Part shown: one piece after another, positions 30,819-60,181 of the stretch
Layout: every line of letters begins with the position of its first letter
Numbering within the stretch: position 1 is the stretch's first letter
NCBI GenBank assembly: GCA_033648345.1
Contig: GCA_033648345.1_4121.1
DNA from: a phage
Direction: 5' to 3' (one strand)
Length of the DNA: 64,000 nt
Position numbers and translations under genes: made by a program
Notes under the pieces: model-generated
What the model was told of the DNA's origin: nothing
What the model saw: the letters and a program-made list of their open reading frames with translations, nothing else
Databases searched by the model: none

Positions 30819-31179
30819 ACTAATCGCGGCGATGGGAGCCAATGAGAAATACTTCAATGGGATTCATTTTTTTAAAACAGATCTTAGTGAAAGTAAAGTA
30901 CTATATGTGTATGGTTCCCAGTACTGCATTGTCACAAAGCACCCAGATTCGATTTCACTAAAATTTAACACTTATTCAAAAAACTTCTTGACGATTAATA
31001 AAAGCAATGTTACTATGTCTGGTATAGGGAATCAGGTTGTTGAGATTCCTTTGGACTCAATTGATTCTATTGAGTTCTTTCAATACGAGTGCTTAGGTGT
31101 TGATTTTGGTACTGTCAGTACTGAATCTATGCGAACATTAATTAATTTACTTAAAGGTAAAGTTCATGCTTTTAACTAA
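30766..31179 (+). CDS. Family B protein (divergent)
   Basis: 137 aa; SIEFFQYECLGVD; start uncertain (53 nt overlap with upstream gene; alternative ATG at 30832). Confidence 0.5.
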   Translation: MLFNSLTKNETRLTTTDELIAAMGANEKYFNGIHFFKTDLSESKVLYVYGSQYCIVTKHPDSISLKFNTYSKNFLTINKSNVTMSGIGNQVVEIPLDSIDSIEFFQYECLGVDFGTVSTESMRTLINLLKGKVHAFN

Positions 31180-34374: not shown

Positions 34375-35223
34375 ATGAAACTTTATCTAATCGTTGACTA
34401 CAGTAAGGGTTATTATGACTACGCAGAAGAATCTGAAGGGTATTGCTCGTCTACTAATGTCAATGTACGCACCAGTAATACACATGAGCATGAATCTATT
34501 ACAAACCTAAAAGATTTCATCGCATATCGAGCATTTGAAAAGAATTTCTGTCGTAGTAGATATTCGAAATTTGAGTACCCGTTAATTGATGTTCCTGATG
34601 AATTGATGTTCCAGTTAATGCTCACTGGAGTACAAGATTATGATTACATCGCGTACAATCACATTACTAAGAAAATTTATATCGGTACGTCAACACATGA
34701 CATTTCTATGTATGCATCATGCCCCGATGATCGAATGAATGATAGAAAATCATACTATAGTGGATCAGTTGGTTCAAATGATTCATTAAATGAAAATTTA
34801 TTCTTTGAGTACGAGTTTGATAATCATCGAGGGAATAAAGACCGAGAAGATTATTGTACTAAAATTGATAGTTCAAATGGATATGAAGAAGTGAAAGAAG
34901 CGATAATGCCATATATCCTTGACAAGTACTACAAAGATTTTCAGTACTGTAGTAATTTTCTAATCCGAAATTCTATCATAATCGGTCGTCAAAGTACTGC
35001 ATTCTCTAAGTACTACAATGATTCCCCTGTTGCTGAAAATGAAAACTGTAATATTCTCTCAATTCCACGTGAAGATATGGTATTCATGTTCACATCTTTC
35101 ATTGAAGATGATGAGTTGTATGTAAAAAACAAGCACAGGTTCATGCCAAGTAAGATTGAGGTTATGAGAAGCTTAAGTGCAGATATCTTAACTAATTTCA
35201 CTGAAAAAACAGAATACAACTGA
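34375..35223 (+). CDS. Hypothetical protein (weak family B motif)
   Basis: 282 aa; PDELMFQLMLTGVQD. Confidence 0.55.
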   Translation: MKLYLIVDYSKGYYDYAEESEGYCSSTNVNVRTSNTHEHESITNLKDFIAYRAFEKNFCRSRYSKFEYPLIDVPDELMFQLMLTGVQDYDYIAYNHITKKIYIGTSTHDISMYASCPDDRMNDRKSYYSGSVGSNDSLNENLFFEYEFDNHRGNKDREDYCTKIDSSNGYEEVKEAIMPYILDKYYKDFQYCSNFLIRNSIIIGRQSTAFSKYYNDSPVAENENCNILSIPREDMVFMFTSFIEDDELYVKNKHRFMPSKIEVMRSLSADILTNFTEKTEYN

Positions 35224-35253
35224 GACATACCATAAGTTTATGATATAATGTAA

Positions 35254-35285
35254 GGTGACAGCAGAATATGTTGTCGCCTTTTTTT
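35254..35285 (+). terminator. Rho-independent terminator
   Basis: GGUGACAGC-AGAAUAU-GUUGUCGCC hairpin (two G.U pairs) followed by T7; a GTTTATGATATAAT -10-like box sits immediately upstream. Confidence 0.5.
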
Positions 35286-35289
35286 AATC

Positions 35290-35904
35290 CTGAAAGGTTC
35301 CATATGGAAATGATTAAAGCCTAATCCACTCGAAAAGTAGAGGGTAGATGAGTAGTCCTTTCAGTACGAACAGCAAATGAAACCCGTTAGATGATGGCAT
35401 AGTTTGAACCACTCACGGCAATGCGGCTGTATAAAGAACTCCAATAGGATAAAGAGAGTTCCTCGATAGACATATAAGGATCGCACCTTACCAATTATCT
35501 AAGGGAGATTTCATGAGAAATTTGCGGTCGTAATTTATACAATATAGTTGCGTCCAAAATTCGTGAAATCAAATACAAGTACTGGTCATATGGTATTTGT
35601 ATTATGTGTCGGGATGTTTAAGACCGACGACCGTTGCTACAAGAACCGCGATAGAGAGAAACAGAGCAACCCGCTTTCGCCTCGTAAGAGAATTCGTGAT
35701 ATGAACTATGTGAAGGCCACCAGCGTCAAACTTTTTTTGTTCTTTCCCCTGCGGGGGGATGAAATATGCTCAAGCAAACCCCGTCAATATTAATTAAAAC
35801 AAATCATAGTACTTTCGTCGAATTATACACGCTTCGCATGTCTAATTCGACTGGTGTTGATGAAGTCAACGCCATGTACAGTCATTGATGTTTCCATAGG
35901 AATA
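35290..35904 (+). other. Non-coding island, GC-richer than surroundings; candidate structured RNA or cis element
   Basis: About 600 bp without a convincing ORF in a genome otherwise tiled with genes; contains a perfect 9 bp inverted repeat (35817..35825 / 35843..35851), a GTTGCT...AGCAAC stem, a GTCGG...CCGAC stem and a CCCCTGCGGGGGG element. Confidence 0.4.
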
Positions 35905-36450
35905 ATGATGTCATTTATTAAAAAATCTAAAAGCGTCACTTATAAAACACTAGAATTTGTTGATTCAGATAATCAGAACCAAGACCAAGAGGATTTTACT
36001 GGTTTTGTTGTGATTAAAGAAAAGGGATGTATTTCGTACATCAAAGAGTTGCAGTGCGGTTTTGAATTAACTTCCATTAAGTTATTCCCAACCAAGAAGC
36101 CTACAATTCTTAAAGCTCGTTATGGGAACTACTACGAAGAGCGTTATAGTAATAATCTAATCAGTGCGAAAGCACATATCGTCAATGGAGAACTAGAAGG
36201 AGAATATAGAAAATTCAACCCACAAGGAAAATGTGTTTGGGTTAAATACTTCAATTCAGGAAATGATGTAACATCAGAAATTATTGAGTTTTTAGGTTTA
36301 ACATGTACCCTTGAAACTCTTCATGATTACAAATTTAATACTGAAGAAGAGTTTAATCTGATGATGCGTTATGGATCACATTTTAAATTTTTATATGAAT
36401 ACAACATTGACAGTAGTACTTTTGATGACATAGTACTTAACTGTCTATAA
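35905..36450 (+). CDS. Hypothetical protein
   Basis: Track ORF 35854..36450; in-frame ATG at 35905 preceded by AGGAATA. Confidence 0.55.
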   Translation: MMSFIKKSKSVTYKTLEFVDSDNQNQDQEDFTGFVVIKEKGCISYIKELQCGFELTSIKLFPTKKPTILKARYGNYYEERYSNNLISAKAHIVNGELEGEYRKFNPQGKCVWVKYFNSGNDVTSEIIEFLGLTCTLETLHDYKFNTEEEFNLMMRYGSHFKFLYEYNIDSSTFDDIVLNCL

Positions 36451-39892: not shown

Positions 39893-40139
39893 ATTCTTAT
39901 ACTTGTCATATGTAAAAGATGAGTACTATGAAAGTGTGTATTATTTTTTATGGCAACATTACCGTACTATAGTAAGAGATTCATATATAGGAAAATCTAT
40001 CATATCCAATGGTGAAAAATGTATATGTACTGATGTTGTTAGTTTTAATGGTTCTTTAACACTGTGTTTCAGATGCGATAATAATAGTGGGTCATTTTCA
40101 TTAAACGTATATCAGTTAGAAGGAATAAATTTTGAATAA
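39855..40139 (+). CDS. Family C small protein
   Basis: 94 aa; EIQVFYKFLYLSY. Confidence 0.6.
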   Translation: MKNNLKEIQVFYKFLYLSYVKDEYYESVYYFLWQHYRTIVRDSYIGKSIISNGEKCICTDVVSFNGSLTLCFRCDNNSGSFSLNVYQLEGINFE

Positions 40140-40332
40140 ATGTCCATATTGCAACAGTACTCAATTAGCTCGTTTCCGTTTAGATTCAGACTGGGCCACT
40201 GGTGCTGGTGATTTCTTTCCCATCAATGATGATTCGGAATACACTGAAGAACAGCACAAAGATTTTGATAAATCATGGCGACCTGACATTGAGTGCATTT
40301 ATTGCCTTAATTGTGAGCGTATCCATGACTAA
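40132..40332 (+). CDS. Zinc-ribbon protein
   Basis: 66 aa; paired CxxC motifs (CPYCNS ... CIYCLNC). Confidence 0.55.
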   Translation: MNKCPYCNSTQLARFRLDSDWATGAGDFFPINDDSEYTEEQHKDFDKSWRPDIECIYCLNCERIHD

Positions 40333-59291: not shown

Positions 59292-59320
59292 AAAAAGGAG
59301 CCATAAGGCTCCTTTTTCTT
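59292..59320 (+). terminator. Rho-independent terminator
   Basis: A-tract, AGGAGCC-ATAA-GGCTCCT hairpin, then TTTTTCTTTT. Confidence 0.75.
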
Positions 59321-59409
59321 TTGTTAGTACACAACTTGTTTGAATTTCAGGAAAACTCTTAGAACCAACAACGAGTTCAGTACTACCACGTTATTTGTTG
59401 ACAAAAGCA

Positions 59410-59437
59410 TAGACATTATACATTCGTGTGATATAAT
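59410..59437 (+). promoter_or_regulatory. Promoter TAGACA-N16-TGaTATAAT (extended -10)
   Basis: Same architecture as 55884; in 280 bp intergenic region; a second weaker TTGACT-N15-TATAAT lies at about 59506..59532. Confidence 0.5.
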
Positions 59438-59572
59438 CATTCAAAAGAAGGTACAAAGGCGGGGTGATTCTGTGAGGGAATTTGTGAAGTGATATAAAAA
59501 ACAATTTGACTTAAGTTAAATCTTCCTATAATATTATTTATGTAATCAACAATCAACTAAGAGGGTTAACCA

Positions 59573-60181
59573 GTGGTACGATTATGTAAAGAAATCATCC
59601 AATCTATTATTATTATTTTCTTAATTAACTTTCCTGCAAGTGCAGGTGTTGAAAGAAAAAGTATCATTAGATATGATGAATCTAAACAGACAGTTCAGTT
59701 CATTTCAACTTTAACTGAAAATACTGTAAACCGTTTGATGGTTTTTAGAGAAACACACCCATTTGACACTATCATCATTACGTCACCTGGTGGTGATTTT
59801 GATGCGGGAGTGGCACTAGGAAATTTTGTCAATGATAACAATTTAACAATTATTGTTGAAAGATATTGTAATTCTTCTTGCACTATCGCATTCTTTAGTG
59901 CTAATATAGAAAACAGATACATGATGAAGGACTCAATTCTAGGTCTACATAATGTGTCAATCGAAAGTAAAGCACGAAATAGTGATGACACATACATATC
60001 AGTTCGCCAAATGACTATTTTTGCTGAACAGCTATCAACTAAGGTTGGTGTTCTATTTGCGTTATATGCAGCGAATGGTATTCCTCCAGAATTGTTAGTG
60101 GAGGTTAGTAAGGTTCGTGGTAATGAAGTTGTGAGACTTACACCAGATCAGTTGCTCGAATTAGGTAGTATCATTCATTAG
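59573..60181 (+). CDS. Secreted ClpP/SppA-like serine peptidase (putative)
   Basis: 202 aa; GTG start after RBS AGAGGG; N-terminal signal-like hydrophobic segment; ITSPGGDFDAG resembles the ClpP/S49 xSPGG motif. Confidence 0.45.
   Translation: MVRLCKEIIQSIIIIFLINFPASAGVERKSIIRYDESKQTVQFISTLTENTVNRLMVFRETHPFDTIIITSPGGDFDAGVALGNFVNDNNLTIIVERYCNSSCTIAFFSANIENRYMMKDSILGLHNVSIESKARNSDDTYISVRQMTIFAEQLSTKVGVLFALYAANGIPPELLVEVSKVRGNEVVRLTPDQLLELGSIIH

Follow-up and report, generated by a model that had tools for sequence, protein, structure and literature searches.

What occupies positions 35224-35904 of our window (the whole 64,000-nucleotide stretch of phage DNA analyzed here), where no credible open reading frame (ORF) lies? 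The window is Asteriusvirus DNA, i.e., from a 121Q/PBECO4-like jumbo coliphage, and an earlier note made from its sequence alone had described this interval as by far the longest without a credible ORF and as a candidate structured non-coding RNA. At 681 nt it is indeed the longest in the window, though "by far" is somewhat overstated because the runner-up ORF-free interval (59292-59737) reaches 446 nt. The interval is also GC-richer as described (41.4% for its conserved core versus 33.4% for the window), and all features listed within it were confirmed at their coordinates. These include the -10-like box TGATATAAT (35241-35249), the terminator-like hairpin with its T-run (35252-35280/87), the 9-bp inverted repeat GTCGAATTA/TAATTCGAC (35817-25/35843-51, loop of 17 nt), the GTTGC/GCAAC stem (35633-37/35666-70), the GTCGG/CCGAC stem (35608-12/35624-28) and CCCCTGCGGGGGG (35746-58). 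Evaluating this interval against related phages and bacterial genomes, we found it to be non-coding, to be one of four paralogues per genome and to have helices that are kept by compensatory changes on the + strand. We interpret it as the gene for a large, highly structured non-coding RNA that would fold compactly and act in trans, an explanation that, taken as a whole, we rate only slightly above an even chance.

Compensatory changes maintain helices on the + strand

To summarize the evidence for an RNA, we used an alignment of 44 diverse copies (the window included) and 15 helices, two of them pseudoknots, comprising 73 base pairs. Paired cells made up 92.8% of the alignment at these positions versus 39-46% with the partners slid, two-sided changes occurred in 50 of the 73 pairs, and compensatory cells numbered 580 versus 73-112 in the slid controls. 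With none of 500 shuffles matching any of five covariation measures, the signal is beyond chance. G-U cells exceeded A-C cells (256 versus 72), an excess that places the RNA on the + strand, and the fold z-score was -3.7 on that strand (0 of 20 shuffles as good) versus -1.7 on the - strand. For simple hairpins, covariation cannot separate RNA from single-stranded DNA. The stems that had been picked out by eye are all backed by covariation except the 9-bp stem, which has compensatory changes among close relatives. Folding and covariation against related phages, which the earlier note had proposed as a check, thus revealed helices held by compensatory changes, and its reading of a structured non-coding RNA is strongly supported by paralogue and orthologue conservation together with these extensive base changes.

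That the interval instead encodes a protein, either from the 81-aa ORF at 35548..35793 or as a small peptide from ATG 35759, or that its hairpins arose by chance, are readings to which we give almost no credence. The ORF had already been doubted for its composition, and although its frame is open in both the window and 121Q, it is spurious and not conserved: across the equivalent segment, stops interrupt all three frames in 42 of 43 homologues (43 of 44 sequences with the window ORF's own stop). The GGGGGGAUGAAA "start" (ATG 35759) is lost in the copies from bacterial genomic islands described below, and the frame of its conserved box shifts between copies. A conserved coding frame, which would have refuted the RNA reading, was sought in the homologues and is absent, while chance hairpins are excluded by the covariation statistics.

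Layout of the element and its promoter

The element is laid out as a promoter, a 5' hairpin, a conserved core of ~500 nt (nhmmer match, 35309-35794) and two 3' hairpins, with the following features, all on the + strand.

35222..35249 (+): promoter from a promoter scan, with a -35-like GAGACA (35222-27), a 16-nt spacer and an extended -10 TGATATAAT (35241-49)
35252..35287 (+): intrinsic terminator of the upstream gene (hairpin and U-run) overlapping the predicted RNA start, from a scan and the annotation of phage G17
35286..35786 (+): conserved RNA core, from AAUCCUGA... (conserved 5' motif) to ...CCCCGUCAAU, in the 44-sequence alignment
35327..35344 (+): hairpin P1 (35327-31/35340-44), loop GAAAAGUA, two-sided changes in 5 of 5 pairs
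35352..35367 (+): hairpin P2 (35352-54/35365-67), 100% paired, 2 of 3 pairs covarying, preceded by a near-invariant AGAUGAG
35370..35430 (+): P3 (35370-74/35426-30; 100% paired, 4 of 5 pairs covarying) around P4 (35384-87/35415-18; 100% paired) and a distal hairpin of variable length
35436..35461 (+): hairpin P5, GAACUC/GAGUUC, 6 of 6 pairs covarying
35475..35490 (+): hairpin P6, UAAGG/CCUUA, the least supported helix (77% paired; alignment poor here)
35500..35507 (+): UAAGGGAG box, in which the AAGGGA columns are invariant
35507..35570 (+): variable peripheral arm P8, with module UACAAUAUAGUUGCGUCCAAAAUU at 35540-65
35572..35603 (+): 12-bp hairpin P9, 8-nt loop GGUCAUAU, 12 of 12 pairs covarying
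35586..35704 (+): pseudoknot PK1, P9 loop UCAUAU (35586-91) with AUAUGA (35699-704), 6 of 6 pairs covarying, cells 100% paired (n=44)
35608..35628 (+): hairpin P10, GUCGG/CCGAC, covarying
35633..35670 (+): pseudoknot PK2, GUUGC (35633-37) with GCAAC (35666-70) in the P13 loop, 100% paired, one covarying pair (C-G to U-A, 9 sequences)
35647..35698 (+): three-way junction of P12 (35647-51/35694-98) and P13 (35654-58/35674-78), both 99-100% paired with 3 covarying pairs each, and P14 (35681-83/35688-90; GUAA loop, 94% paired, 3 of 3 covarying)
35731..35786 (+): pyrimidine tract, P15 CCCC-UGC-GGGG (35746-49/35753-56; 92% paired, one-sided changes only), invariant G-run (GGGGG) and AUGAAA...CAAACCCCGUCA box
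35817..35873 (+): 3' hairpin domain, with hairpin A (35817-51; the 9-bp repeat and an inner stem) and hairpin B (35853-73; GAA loop)
35907..36450 (+): next gene, encoding a hypothetical protein, first of a hyp-dam-cytidylyltransferase group; the right-hand limit, outside the RNA

Variation among copies is concentrated in peripheral arms of variable length (the P4 extension, P8, P14 and P16) and in one hairpin module that moves between arms, with junction nucleotides invariant throughout. The outer stem of P8 (GAUUUCAUG/CGUGAAAUC) is present in the minimum-free-energy fold of the window copy; other paralogues have a 4-bp GNRA hairpin as P8 and carry the UACAAUAUAGUUGCGUCCAAAAUU module on P14 instead, and copy d of the TH47 genome has the module on both. 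Short versions of the distal P3/P4 hairpin are capped by UUCG or GAAA loops. Our regex-anchored folding of the variable arms gave messy output and served for examples only. Among the paralogues the PK1 sequence varies and P10 occurs as GCUGG/CCAGU or GUCAG/CUGAC, while in the 3' domain the comparison to 121Q reveals compensatory replacement of GUCGAAUUA/UAAUUCGAC by GUAGAAUUA/UAAUUCUAC and of GGUG../..CGCC by GAUG../..CGUC. The 3' hairpins of other copies have C-GNA-G or GNRA loops, or the loop GAACGNAGUGA. A long-range closing helix may form between the UAAGGGAG box and the pyrimidine tract at 35743-48, a pairing that is inferred only and has no covariation. Less clear are three paralogue groups in which an intrinsic-terminator-like hairpin with U6 lies inside the conserved unit and precedes the invariant G-run box, a feature that a simple picture of one mature RNA leaves unexplained.

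Upstream, the sigma-70-type promoter scored 10 of 12 with a TG ahead of the -10, and transcription is predicted to start at ~35255-57. A TGnTATAAT/TATACT -10 with GRGACA or TGAAAC(G) upstream recurs in most of the ~30 copies inspected. The GRGACA-N-TGnTATAAT motif appears 15 times in the TH47 genome, on the gene strand every time, and is the promoter for 3 of its 4 RNA copies; the TGAAAC(G)-type promoter is found in orthologues and islands and is not present in the window copy. The hairpin at 35252-35287 meets intrinsic-terminator criteria (12-pair stem and T7) and follows the upstream stop codon (ORF end at 35223), the equivalent site in phage G17 is annotated as a terminator (ARNOLD), and the order of promoter, hairpin and U-run is repeated in the orthologues of BF, GAP32, XbC2 and CBB. 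On the other side, an AT-rich spacer lies 3' of the core and the neighbourhood of the next gene recurs in XbC2, BF and RaK2. The window copy has no terminator ahead of this gene, and its RNA probably doubles as the 5' portion of an mRNA, such that action in cis is possible.

Paralogues in Rak2-like phages and copies in host islands

We found this family in every Rak2-like phage genus, with four copies on the same strand of TH47, dispersed 56-116 kb apart, and five copies per genome in other genera. The 71-72 phage records with the element are all Rak2-like and carry it in 4-5 places each, except for the Klebsiella (Alcyoneusvirus) records, which gave one short blastn match only and for which a pattern scan found two copies in RaK2. 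Within the window no second copy was found (blastn with 7-base words; nhmmer). Beyond it, nhmmer recovered ~100 copies, and when IMG/VR was scanned with relaxed motifs to find remoter relatives, just 4 chance hits were added, all in coding DNA. Core identity is 97.6-100% within Asteriusvirus versus ~85% for the surrounding 12 kb. Syntenic orthologues exist in XbC2, BF and RaK2, and XaC1 has a homologous copy whose gene neighbourhood differs. With regard to genomic context, TH47 copies a, b and d have co-oriented genes downstream, copy c has minus-strand genes on either side and adjoins endonuclease VII and recombination endonuclease genes, and the genes 3' of the different paralogues are unrelated. 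Separately, copies b and d adjoin ORFs that we read from their N-terminal sequences, without a profile library check, as putative HNH-type endonucleases, and the UE-S1 record has a "repeat_region" annotated on copy c.

The element also occurs in Enterobacteriaceae chromosomes as one copy within small, low-GC, integrase-bearing islands, E. coli LR-29-1 and Enterobacter chinensis 170198 being examples of carriers. Full-length matches come from 7 bacterial contigs and, in metagenomes, from about ten additional island loci. These island copies converge on a cI-like gene and have no co-oriented ORF. Comparing the islands to the compared phage sequences (tblastn) revealed no common protein bar one unrelated DUF4326-domain match, between an E. 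coli island and TH47, and Pfam revealed no recognisable replication proteins in the islands. No copies were found among 72,556 PLSDB plasmids.

Possible roles and the nearest known systems

Seeking known RNA families, we found no hits to the Rfam 15 covariance models across the 64-kb window at the gathering threshold (families covered include GOLLD, ROOL, OLE, HEARO, raiA, RNase P, 6S, group I/II introns, ribozymes and RNAI). A permissive search of 35100-36000 gave only 4 chance-level hits (E = 6-10, 11-21 bits), and the element itself had no match in 12 diverse copies (E <= 1) or in the 7 bacterial loci. Antisense RNA I (RF00106) was unmatched on either strand. A tRNA is unsupported, as ARAGORN, run for tRNA and tmRNA, called 0 genes in the window and none on the element in 40 related loci. 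The suggestion of a self-splicing intron remnant likewise finds no support in the Rfam group I/II models; the element is intergenic in all genomes, and by our reading its helix order (A-B-C-A'-C'-D-D'-B') misfits the P3/P7 topology. A hammerhead, considered for the likeness to AGAUGAG-stem-CGA, was rejected given no Rfam match, a variable base after CG and a next position that belongs to a covarying pair of P3. A packaging site, also raised in the earlier note, would be single and is incompatible with 4-5 dispersed copies, and the note's "regulatory or anti-defence sRNA" understates a conserved unit of ~0.5-0.6 kb with two pseudoknots. We found no description of the element in the literature searched (genome papers for CBB, fEgEco12 and phAPEC6, a viral structured-RNA survey and jumbo-phage transcriptome papers). 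With good though incomplete confidence, we regard it as an undescribed class of large pseudoknotted RNA of the rank of GOLLD, ROOL and OLE, present in 4-5 diverged copies per Rak2-like phage and the sole component that these phages have in common with small e14-like host islands.

In the explanation we favor, transcription would run rightward from a strong sigma-70-type promoter of the RNA's own (35222-35249) and begin at ~35256, and the RNA would consist of the ~500-nt core (35286-35786) followed by two 3' hairpins ending at 35873. We infer that host RNA polymerase makes it early in infection, that it folds as a compact two-domain body, and that its role is a trans-acting one, whether as RNA machine, scaffold or sequestering RNA and perhaps in oligomeric form, although its activity is unknown. 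Since the RNA is intact in islands that have no detected protein in common with the compared phage sequences, the likeliest partner is either a component conserved in the host or the RNA itself; the other possibility is that the island copy acts on the infecting phage, as a decoy or for hijacking. A stand-alone gene is supported by copy c, which lies between minus-strand genes, and by the island copies, which are convergent with the cI-like gene. As the literature searched contains no transcript data for Rak2-like phages, promoter and terminator motifs are the basis on which we infer that the RNA is expressed, where its ends lie and how abundant it is.

An RNA-primed replication origin remains possible but, in our judgment, unlikely. 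Here, an R-loop formed by the promoter-driven structured transcript would lie at the invariant C-run/G-run box, with the transcript's 3' end as primer for the leading strand, the downstream hairpins on the displaced strand would be priming or helicase-loading sites, the 4-5 copies would be the multiple origins of a 350-kb T4-related genome, and the single island copy would let infecting phage or host enzymes replicate the island. This is consistent with the 56-116 kb dispersal of copies, with islands that lack a recognisable replication protein, with copy c being beside nuclease genes, and with an invariant G5 run that has a pyrimidine tract 5' and an AT-rich spacer and then C-GNA-G-loop hairpins 3'. 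In single-stranded DNA, loops of the d(GCGAAGC) type have very high stability, and phage origins are among the places where they occur; T4 oriF and oriG use middle promoters. The TGAAAC(G) -35 element of other genera and islands sits, in CBB, mainly upstream of DNA-synthesis genes (PMC5259590). Weighing against an origin are the absence of the element from all of the plasmids searched, the unmatched Rfam RNAI, and pseudoknots, invariant junctions and near-100% cross-species identity that considerably exceed the known needs of ColE1 RNA II or T4 origin transcripts. The GC-skew check that had been suggested for an origin also revealed no inflection at any of the four copies. Phage GC skew mostly tracks transcription, and an origin, one of the earlier note's possibilities, is left without skew support yet not excluded.

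More doubtful to us is a cis-acting leader that governs downstream read-through, either through processive antitermination (the RNA altering the polymerase that transcribes it, HK022 put-like) or through detection of a signal, as a giant riboswitch or attenuator. The element is always directly 3' of a promoter, copies a, b and d precede co-oriented genes, three paralogue groups have the terminator-like hairpin and U-run after the core, several paralogues have a final 3' hairpin that directly adjoins the start codon of the following gene, and a host-polymerase partner would account for function in islands. A leader is harder to reconcile with the minus-strand genes that flank copy c, with island copies that face a convergent gene and have no co-oriented ORF, with unrelated genes downstream of the paralogues, and with an element ~7 times the size of put. 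Very improbable, finally, is an element that is selfish or degenerate (an intron remnant without an ORF, a MITE-like repeat or a functionless homing target), for which one can cite dispersed copies, the putative HNH-type ORFs and the UE-S1 annotation, but against which stand the synteny of each paralogue across genera and a core conserved above neighbouring genes. It also lacks an intron model match, and the copies are intergenic with no terminal repeats or target duplications seen.

If the reading of a new RNA class is true, an RNA would be central to jumbo-phage infection, whether it works as a ribozyme, assembles itself into an RNA particle or serves as an RNA-based origin of replication, and islands would have captured it to parasitise the phage (the first jumbo-phage satellites) or to block the phage by RNA decoy. 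An island copy that is a decoy or hijacker would represent a new type of RNA-based phage-host conflict, while an origin would provide the first replication map of the Rak2-like phage group. The multi-copy state and the islands without a detected protein shared with the compared phage sequences point to an undescribed RNA-level interaction between phage, host and island. Because the element is found in cultivable E. coli phages (121Q, PBECO4, phAPEC6, G17), it is directly testable, and the ~100 sequences with a covariation-backed secondary structure are a resource for doing so. Large RNAs with an intricate fold are seldom found, and every new class (RNase P, OLE, GOLLD, ROOL, HEARO/omega RNA) has led to new biochemistry.

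Among known systems, the ~800-nt non-coding RNA of ICP1 (PMC7567579) and ncRNA001-004 of PA5oct (PMC7318152) are abundant ORF-less transcripts of large lytic phages. Like the element, they are long, non-coding and located in ORF-free gaps of large virulent phages, and their expression is high where it has been measured. The Rak2-like group is distantly related to PA5oct, whose ncRNA001-004 were rejected as homologues, all 4 loci lacking a profile match (nhmmer --max) or the invariant motifs. ColE1 RNA II resembles the element in its size (~0.5 kb), its promoter-driven transcription and its defined folding, it and T4 oriF/oriG in having a G-rich/C-rich box near the 3' end, and the T4 origins in having multiple dispersed sites and a phage-specific promoter class, but the element has no homology to these, no RNA I match, no plasmid copies and far greater structural constraint. 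In phi29 pRNA, a covarying loop-to-distal pairing that resembles a pseudoknot is intermolecular and builds a ring, and by analogy PK1 could likewise be intermolecular; pRNA differs in being ~170 nt, single-copy and without homology, from a phage with a protein-primed genome, whereas element-bearing phages have T4-like terminases. HK022 put is also present in more than one copy per genome, each just 3' of an early promoter, and acts on host polymerase without phage proteins. It is only ~70 nt with two hairpins, however, and some copies of our element have no co-oriented downstream genes, such that a put-type arrangement (promoter upstream and co-oriented genes at every copy) is met by copies a, b and d and fails for copy c and the islands. 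Also near are GOLLD and ROOL, large "ornate" RNAs with Rfam families of their own that phages and prophages often encode, from which the element differs in having no sequence or structure match, 4-5 paralogues per genome, a distribution across Enterobacterales jumbo phages and host islands, and no adjacent tRNA genes (any present in only 1 of 40 loci), but with which it shares a length of several hundred nucleotides, many helices and pseudoknots, carriage by phages, a function that is unknown, and the form of an ORF-less, GC-richer island in an AT-rich genome.

Coding potential and fold of the gap

Across 12 kb around the element, by which we mean the RNA within the ORF-free gap 35224-35904 (+) and its ~500-nt core (35286-35786), identity was 96-99% to Escherichia phages vB_Ec-M-J, EC.P1, Ecwhy_1 and fEgEco12 and ~85% to 121Q, PBECO4 and G17, relatives that belong to the genus Asteriusvirus of 'Rak2-like' jumbo myoviruses (350-385 kb). 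Between the upstream ORF, which stops at 35223, and the next credible gene, which starts at 35907, lies a 681-nt gap that is, as the earlier note had proposed, both the longest ORF-free stretch in the window (second longest, 446 nt) and GC-richer (core 41% G+C vs 33% for the window); every feature it had listed there was found in place. Three other ORF-free gaps of 330-450 nt have ordinary or low G+C (0.31-0.34), and none of them matches the element-family profile:

59292-59737, ORF-free gap
30819-31165, ORF-free gap
39893-40225, ORF-free gap

The one predicted ORF within the gap (35548..35793), already doubted for its composition, is not a gene, being open in the window and 121Q only, with stops in all three frames in the remaining homologues; a conserved protein-coding frame, which would have overturned the non-coding reading, was looked for among the homologues and not found. 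We also rejected GGGGGGAUGAAA as a ribosome-binding site and start, because island copies have AUC or AUA in place of its AUG, copy d of phage TH47 reads AUG-AAA-UAG, and the conserved box behind the AUG falls in differing frames between copies.

The suggestion of a structured non-coding RNA held up, in that we recovered a conserved non-coding fold of the + strand with compensatory changes and two pseudoknots. Compared with shuffles, the + strand folded better (z = -3.7) and the - strand not clearly better (z = -1.7). For the comparative analysis we aligned 44 copies of at most 96% mutual identity with MAFFT, blind to structure (alignment A1), built a structure from column-pair statistics and domain-wise RNAalifold, and then counted its pairs on A1. 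The 73 pairs in 15 helices were standard in 92.8% of cases, vs 39-46% with every 3' partner slid by 1-3 columns; both-sided changes occurred in 50 pairs (slid controls, 21-26), compensatory cells numbered 580 (73-112), and none of 500 shuffles reached any of five measures. Helices P3, P12 and P13 each had three or four covarying pairs at 99-100% pairing, and the 12-bp hairpin P9 covaried at 12/12 pairs. Because an excess of G-U pairs over A-C mismatches (256 to 72) is expected only on the folded strand, we take this to be the + strand.

35586-91/35699-704 (+), pseudoknot PK1, the P9 loop with a segment 110 nt downstream
35633-37/35666-70 (+), pseudoknot PK2, GUUGC with GCAAC in the P13 loop
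35540-35565, hairpin module UACAAUAUAGUUGCGUCCAAAAUU (A1 columns ~385-410 and ~545-580)

PK1 paired perfectly in all 44 sequences and covaried at 6/6 positions, reading UCAUAU/AUAUGA in the window and UCGAAU/AUUCGA, UUGUAU/AUACAA or UCAUGU/ACAUGA in other paralogues, while PK2 varied only at one pair, where nine sequences have U-A for C-G as a compensatory change. Many junction nucleotides were invariant in A1 (AGAUGAG, GAAACCCG, GGCAAU, GAUAGA, UAAGGGAG, GACCGUUG), as were GAUA....GAAAC.G..CAACCCGC and GGGGG. The four peripheral arms, by comparison, ranged from a tetraloop-capped stub to 60-nt extensions, and the position of the hairpin module UACAAUAUAG..GCGUCCAAAAUU changes between copies. 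The window copy carries it on arm P8, other paralogues have it on P14, and TH47 copy d on both, which gives it the look of a transposable element for tertiary contact or protein binding. The same pattern of a fixed core and swappable periphery is seen in large ribozymes and ribonucleoprotein RNAs.

Promoters, terminators and the 3' domain

Consensus scans returned a single promoter-like site and a single terminator-like hairpin, which we list with further occurrences of the promoter pattern and the 3' hairpins, including the 9-bp inverted repeat noted earlier (35817-51), which proved to belong to the 3' domain:

35222-35249 (+), promoter-like site, GAGACA-16-TGATATAAT, extended -10
35252-35287 (+), terminator-like hairpin and T-run
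35222, 41310, 48227 and 50449 (+), the four window occurrences of GRGACA-N12-15-TGnTATAAT
35817-51 and 35853-73 (+), 3' hairpins with compensatory changes vs 121Q and a U-G wobble vs TH47

Most of the ~30 copies inspected carry a -10 of TGnTATAAT or TATACT ~60-110 nt upstream of the core, their -35 region being GRGACA in some, the window copy among them, and TGAAAC(G) in others. The latter, used by the other-genus orthologues of the window copy and by island copies, is the 'divergent RpoD-like' promoter of CBB and GAP32, found mainly upstream of DNA-synthesis genes (Buttimer et al., PMC5259590). TH47 has 15 occurrences of GRGACA-N-TGnTATAAT, without exception on the gene strand, and GRGACA-N12-15-TGnTATAAT is probably the strong early promoter class of Asteriusvirus. 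A terminator immediately precedes the promoter or else, the window copy being one example, overlaps the start predicted for the RNA, such that upstream transcripts would stop and the RNA would start afresh.

Beyond the core, an AT-rich spacer is followed by two or three hairpins, most copies showing the loop motif GAACGNAGUGA here together with loops of C-GNA-G or GNRA type. Between the window copy and its downstream gene there is no terminator. In three other paralogue groups, a hairpin and U6 occur within the unit itself, upstream of both the invariant G-run box and the 3' hairpins; the window copy has only a U7 run there. In TH47 copies b, c and d this hairpin (A1 columns 626-660, window ~35731-35745) resembles a canonical intrinsic terminator, e.g., AGAGAC-UUAAUU-GUCUC-U6, and its stems covary. 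In several paralogue groups only 0-25 nt separate the last hairpin, UUGAC-[GNRA or GNA-capped stem]-GGCAA, from the next start codon (e.g., the 3' domains of loci L044, L032, L024, L013, L055 and L038, the AUG of L038 overlapping GGCAAUG); this hairpin may serve in translational coupling or as a processing site.

Copies in jumbo phages and bacterial islands

Searching 50,697 phage records by blastn confined the core to Rak2-like phages, with 71 records from phages of Escherichia, Klebsiella, Salmonella, Erwinia, Yersinia, Xanthomonas, Serratia, Cronobacter and Pectobacterium, each matching in 4-5 places except for a single short match in Klebsiella (Alcyoneusvirus) records. The complete, unannotated genome of TH47 (MT446416), which we used for copy search, holds four copies (a-d) on the same strand at about 49.5, 146.3, 262.2 and 345.8 kb. 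Over conserved blocks, between which lie variable, indel-rich segments, they are 72-89% identical to the window copy, and the 64-kb window itself contains none of the other three. Within Asteriusvirus the core is 97.6-100% identical, vs ~85% for the surrounding 12 kb. Orthologues of the window copy occupy the same place, upstream of a hypothetical gene, dam methylase and cytidylyltransferase, in XbC2 (Mimasvirus), BF (Eneladusvirus) and RaK2 (Alcyoneusvirus), and the duplication is therefore older than these genera. Two homologous TH47 ORFs, near 146.5 kb (directly upstream of copy b) and 345.0 kb (two genes downstream of copy d) and beginning MKLVYGFGINDVKGD and MDKLMKKFYGHGICDIKGD, look like HNH-type homing endonucleases, judging from N-terminal sequences only. 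In phage UE-S1, copy c has endonuclease VII and recombination endonuclease genes on one side and minus-strand hypothetical genes on the other.

In IMG/VR, a degenerate 26-base pattern taken from the best-conserved block hit 31 loci, the majority on 345-378 kb contigs, with the shorter contigs appearing to be fragments of such large genomes. Slight relaxation gave 53 metagenome loci and 7 in bacterial genome assemblies, whereas further relaxation in IMG/VR added only chance matches in coding DNA. A profile from 29 copies made about 100 matches, mostly full-length, in ~33 clusters at 88% identity. The element was absent from all 72,556 plasmids, and an island copy used as query against phages again returned Rak2-like phages only.

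All 7 bacterial loci are chromosomal, neighbouring a TPP riboswitch and thi genes (one), the enterobacterial sRNA STnc450 (one) or ppdD-hofB (others), and each copy sits within a low-GC (28-40%) island whose first gene is an integrase, interchangeably of tyrosine or large serine type. The order runs integrase, RNA, convergent cI-like S24 repressor, Ner-like HTH_35 protein, 286-aa membrane protein, LprI-like protein, small serine recombinase and variable cargo. A related ~10-kb island, its RNA unannotated, adjoins ffs in 2 of 5,426 complete E. coli genomes. Counting metagenome contigs, island loci are L046-L052, L057, L060, L068, L072, L101, L102 and L106. The family (~10-15 kb, low-GC) spans Enterobacter, Serratia, Buttiauxella, Silvania and E. 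coli, with differing insertion sites (ppdD, thiM, ffs, cysQ side) and cargo such as DUF4326/DUF488/dual-OB or, on N-terminal sequence alone, an ADP-ribosylglycohydrolase-like ORF. The islands are similar to cryptic elements of the e14 type; they could be jumbo-phage satellites, or else defence islands. With ORFs that overlap the RNA set aside, tblastn gave a single match between island proteins and TH47 or other phage loci, a DUF4326-domain one from the E. coli island, and no other protein in common.

Mode of action, rival explanations and known RNAs

Our comparisons established a conserved non-coding, multi-helix + strand fold that contains two pseudoknots, has its own promoter, exists in multiple copies and is present in host islands. 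That the element is a structured RNA gene we hold to be nearly certain; the full statement of a trans-acting RNA is an inference that we favour only slightly. Under that statement, host RNA polymerase would transcribe the element early and the product would act as a folded RNA. We interpret it as a gene in its own right rather than a leader because copy c stands alone between minus-strand genes, island copies converge on cI without a co-oriented ORF, and the genes that follow vary from paralogue to paralogue. A cis-acting antiterminator or sensor, which would fit copies a, b and d, does not fit copy c or the islands, and we consider it improbable. Since island copies retain every invariant nucleotide and no protein common to the compared phage sequences was detected, the likeliest partner is the RNA itself or a conserved component of the host; another possibility is that an island copy works only during Rak2-like phage infection, as a decoy or for hijacking.

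The main rival, an RNA-primed origin, is unlikely yet deserves more weight than the cis-acting reading. It would accommodate the dispersed copies, a promoter class common to replication genes, the invariant C-run/G-run box, the AT-rich spacer, hairpin loops of a kind that is highly stable in single-stranded DNA, and the lack of replication genes in islands, but there is no skew signal, no plasmid copies exist in our search, and the structural constraint is far above the need of known primer RNAs.

Returning to the RNA gene, the window had no Rfam 15 match, nor did any Rfam 15 family match 12 diverse copies or the bacterial loci. The earlier note had recognised no tRNA by eye, and ARAGORN likewise found no tRNA or tmRNA; tRNA genes do not lie beside element copies. 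The four RNA-seq-defined ncRNAs of the distant relative PA5oct proved unrelated. The element goes unmentioned in the phage-group genome papers, viral structured-RNA survey and jumbo-phage transcriptome papers searched, its sole prior trace being in the UE-S1 record (our locus L111, ON568341), where the 5' part of copy c (1474-1631) is annotated as an unnamed 'repeat_region'. Because the family matches nothing described, we regard it as categorically new as an RNA class, its function not established. Loosely speaking, it can be placed with the few large 'ornate' RNAs associated with phages, GOLLD and ROOL, and with ICP1 and PA5oct ncRNAs that are abundant but unexplained (PMC7567579, PMC7318152).
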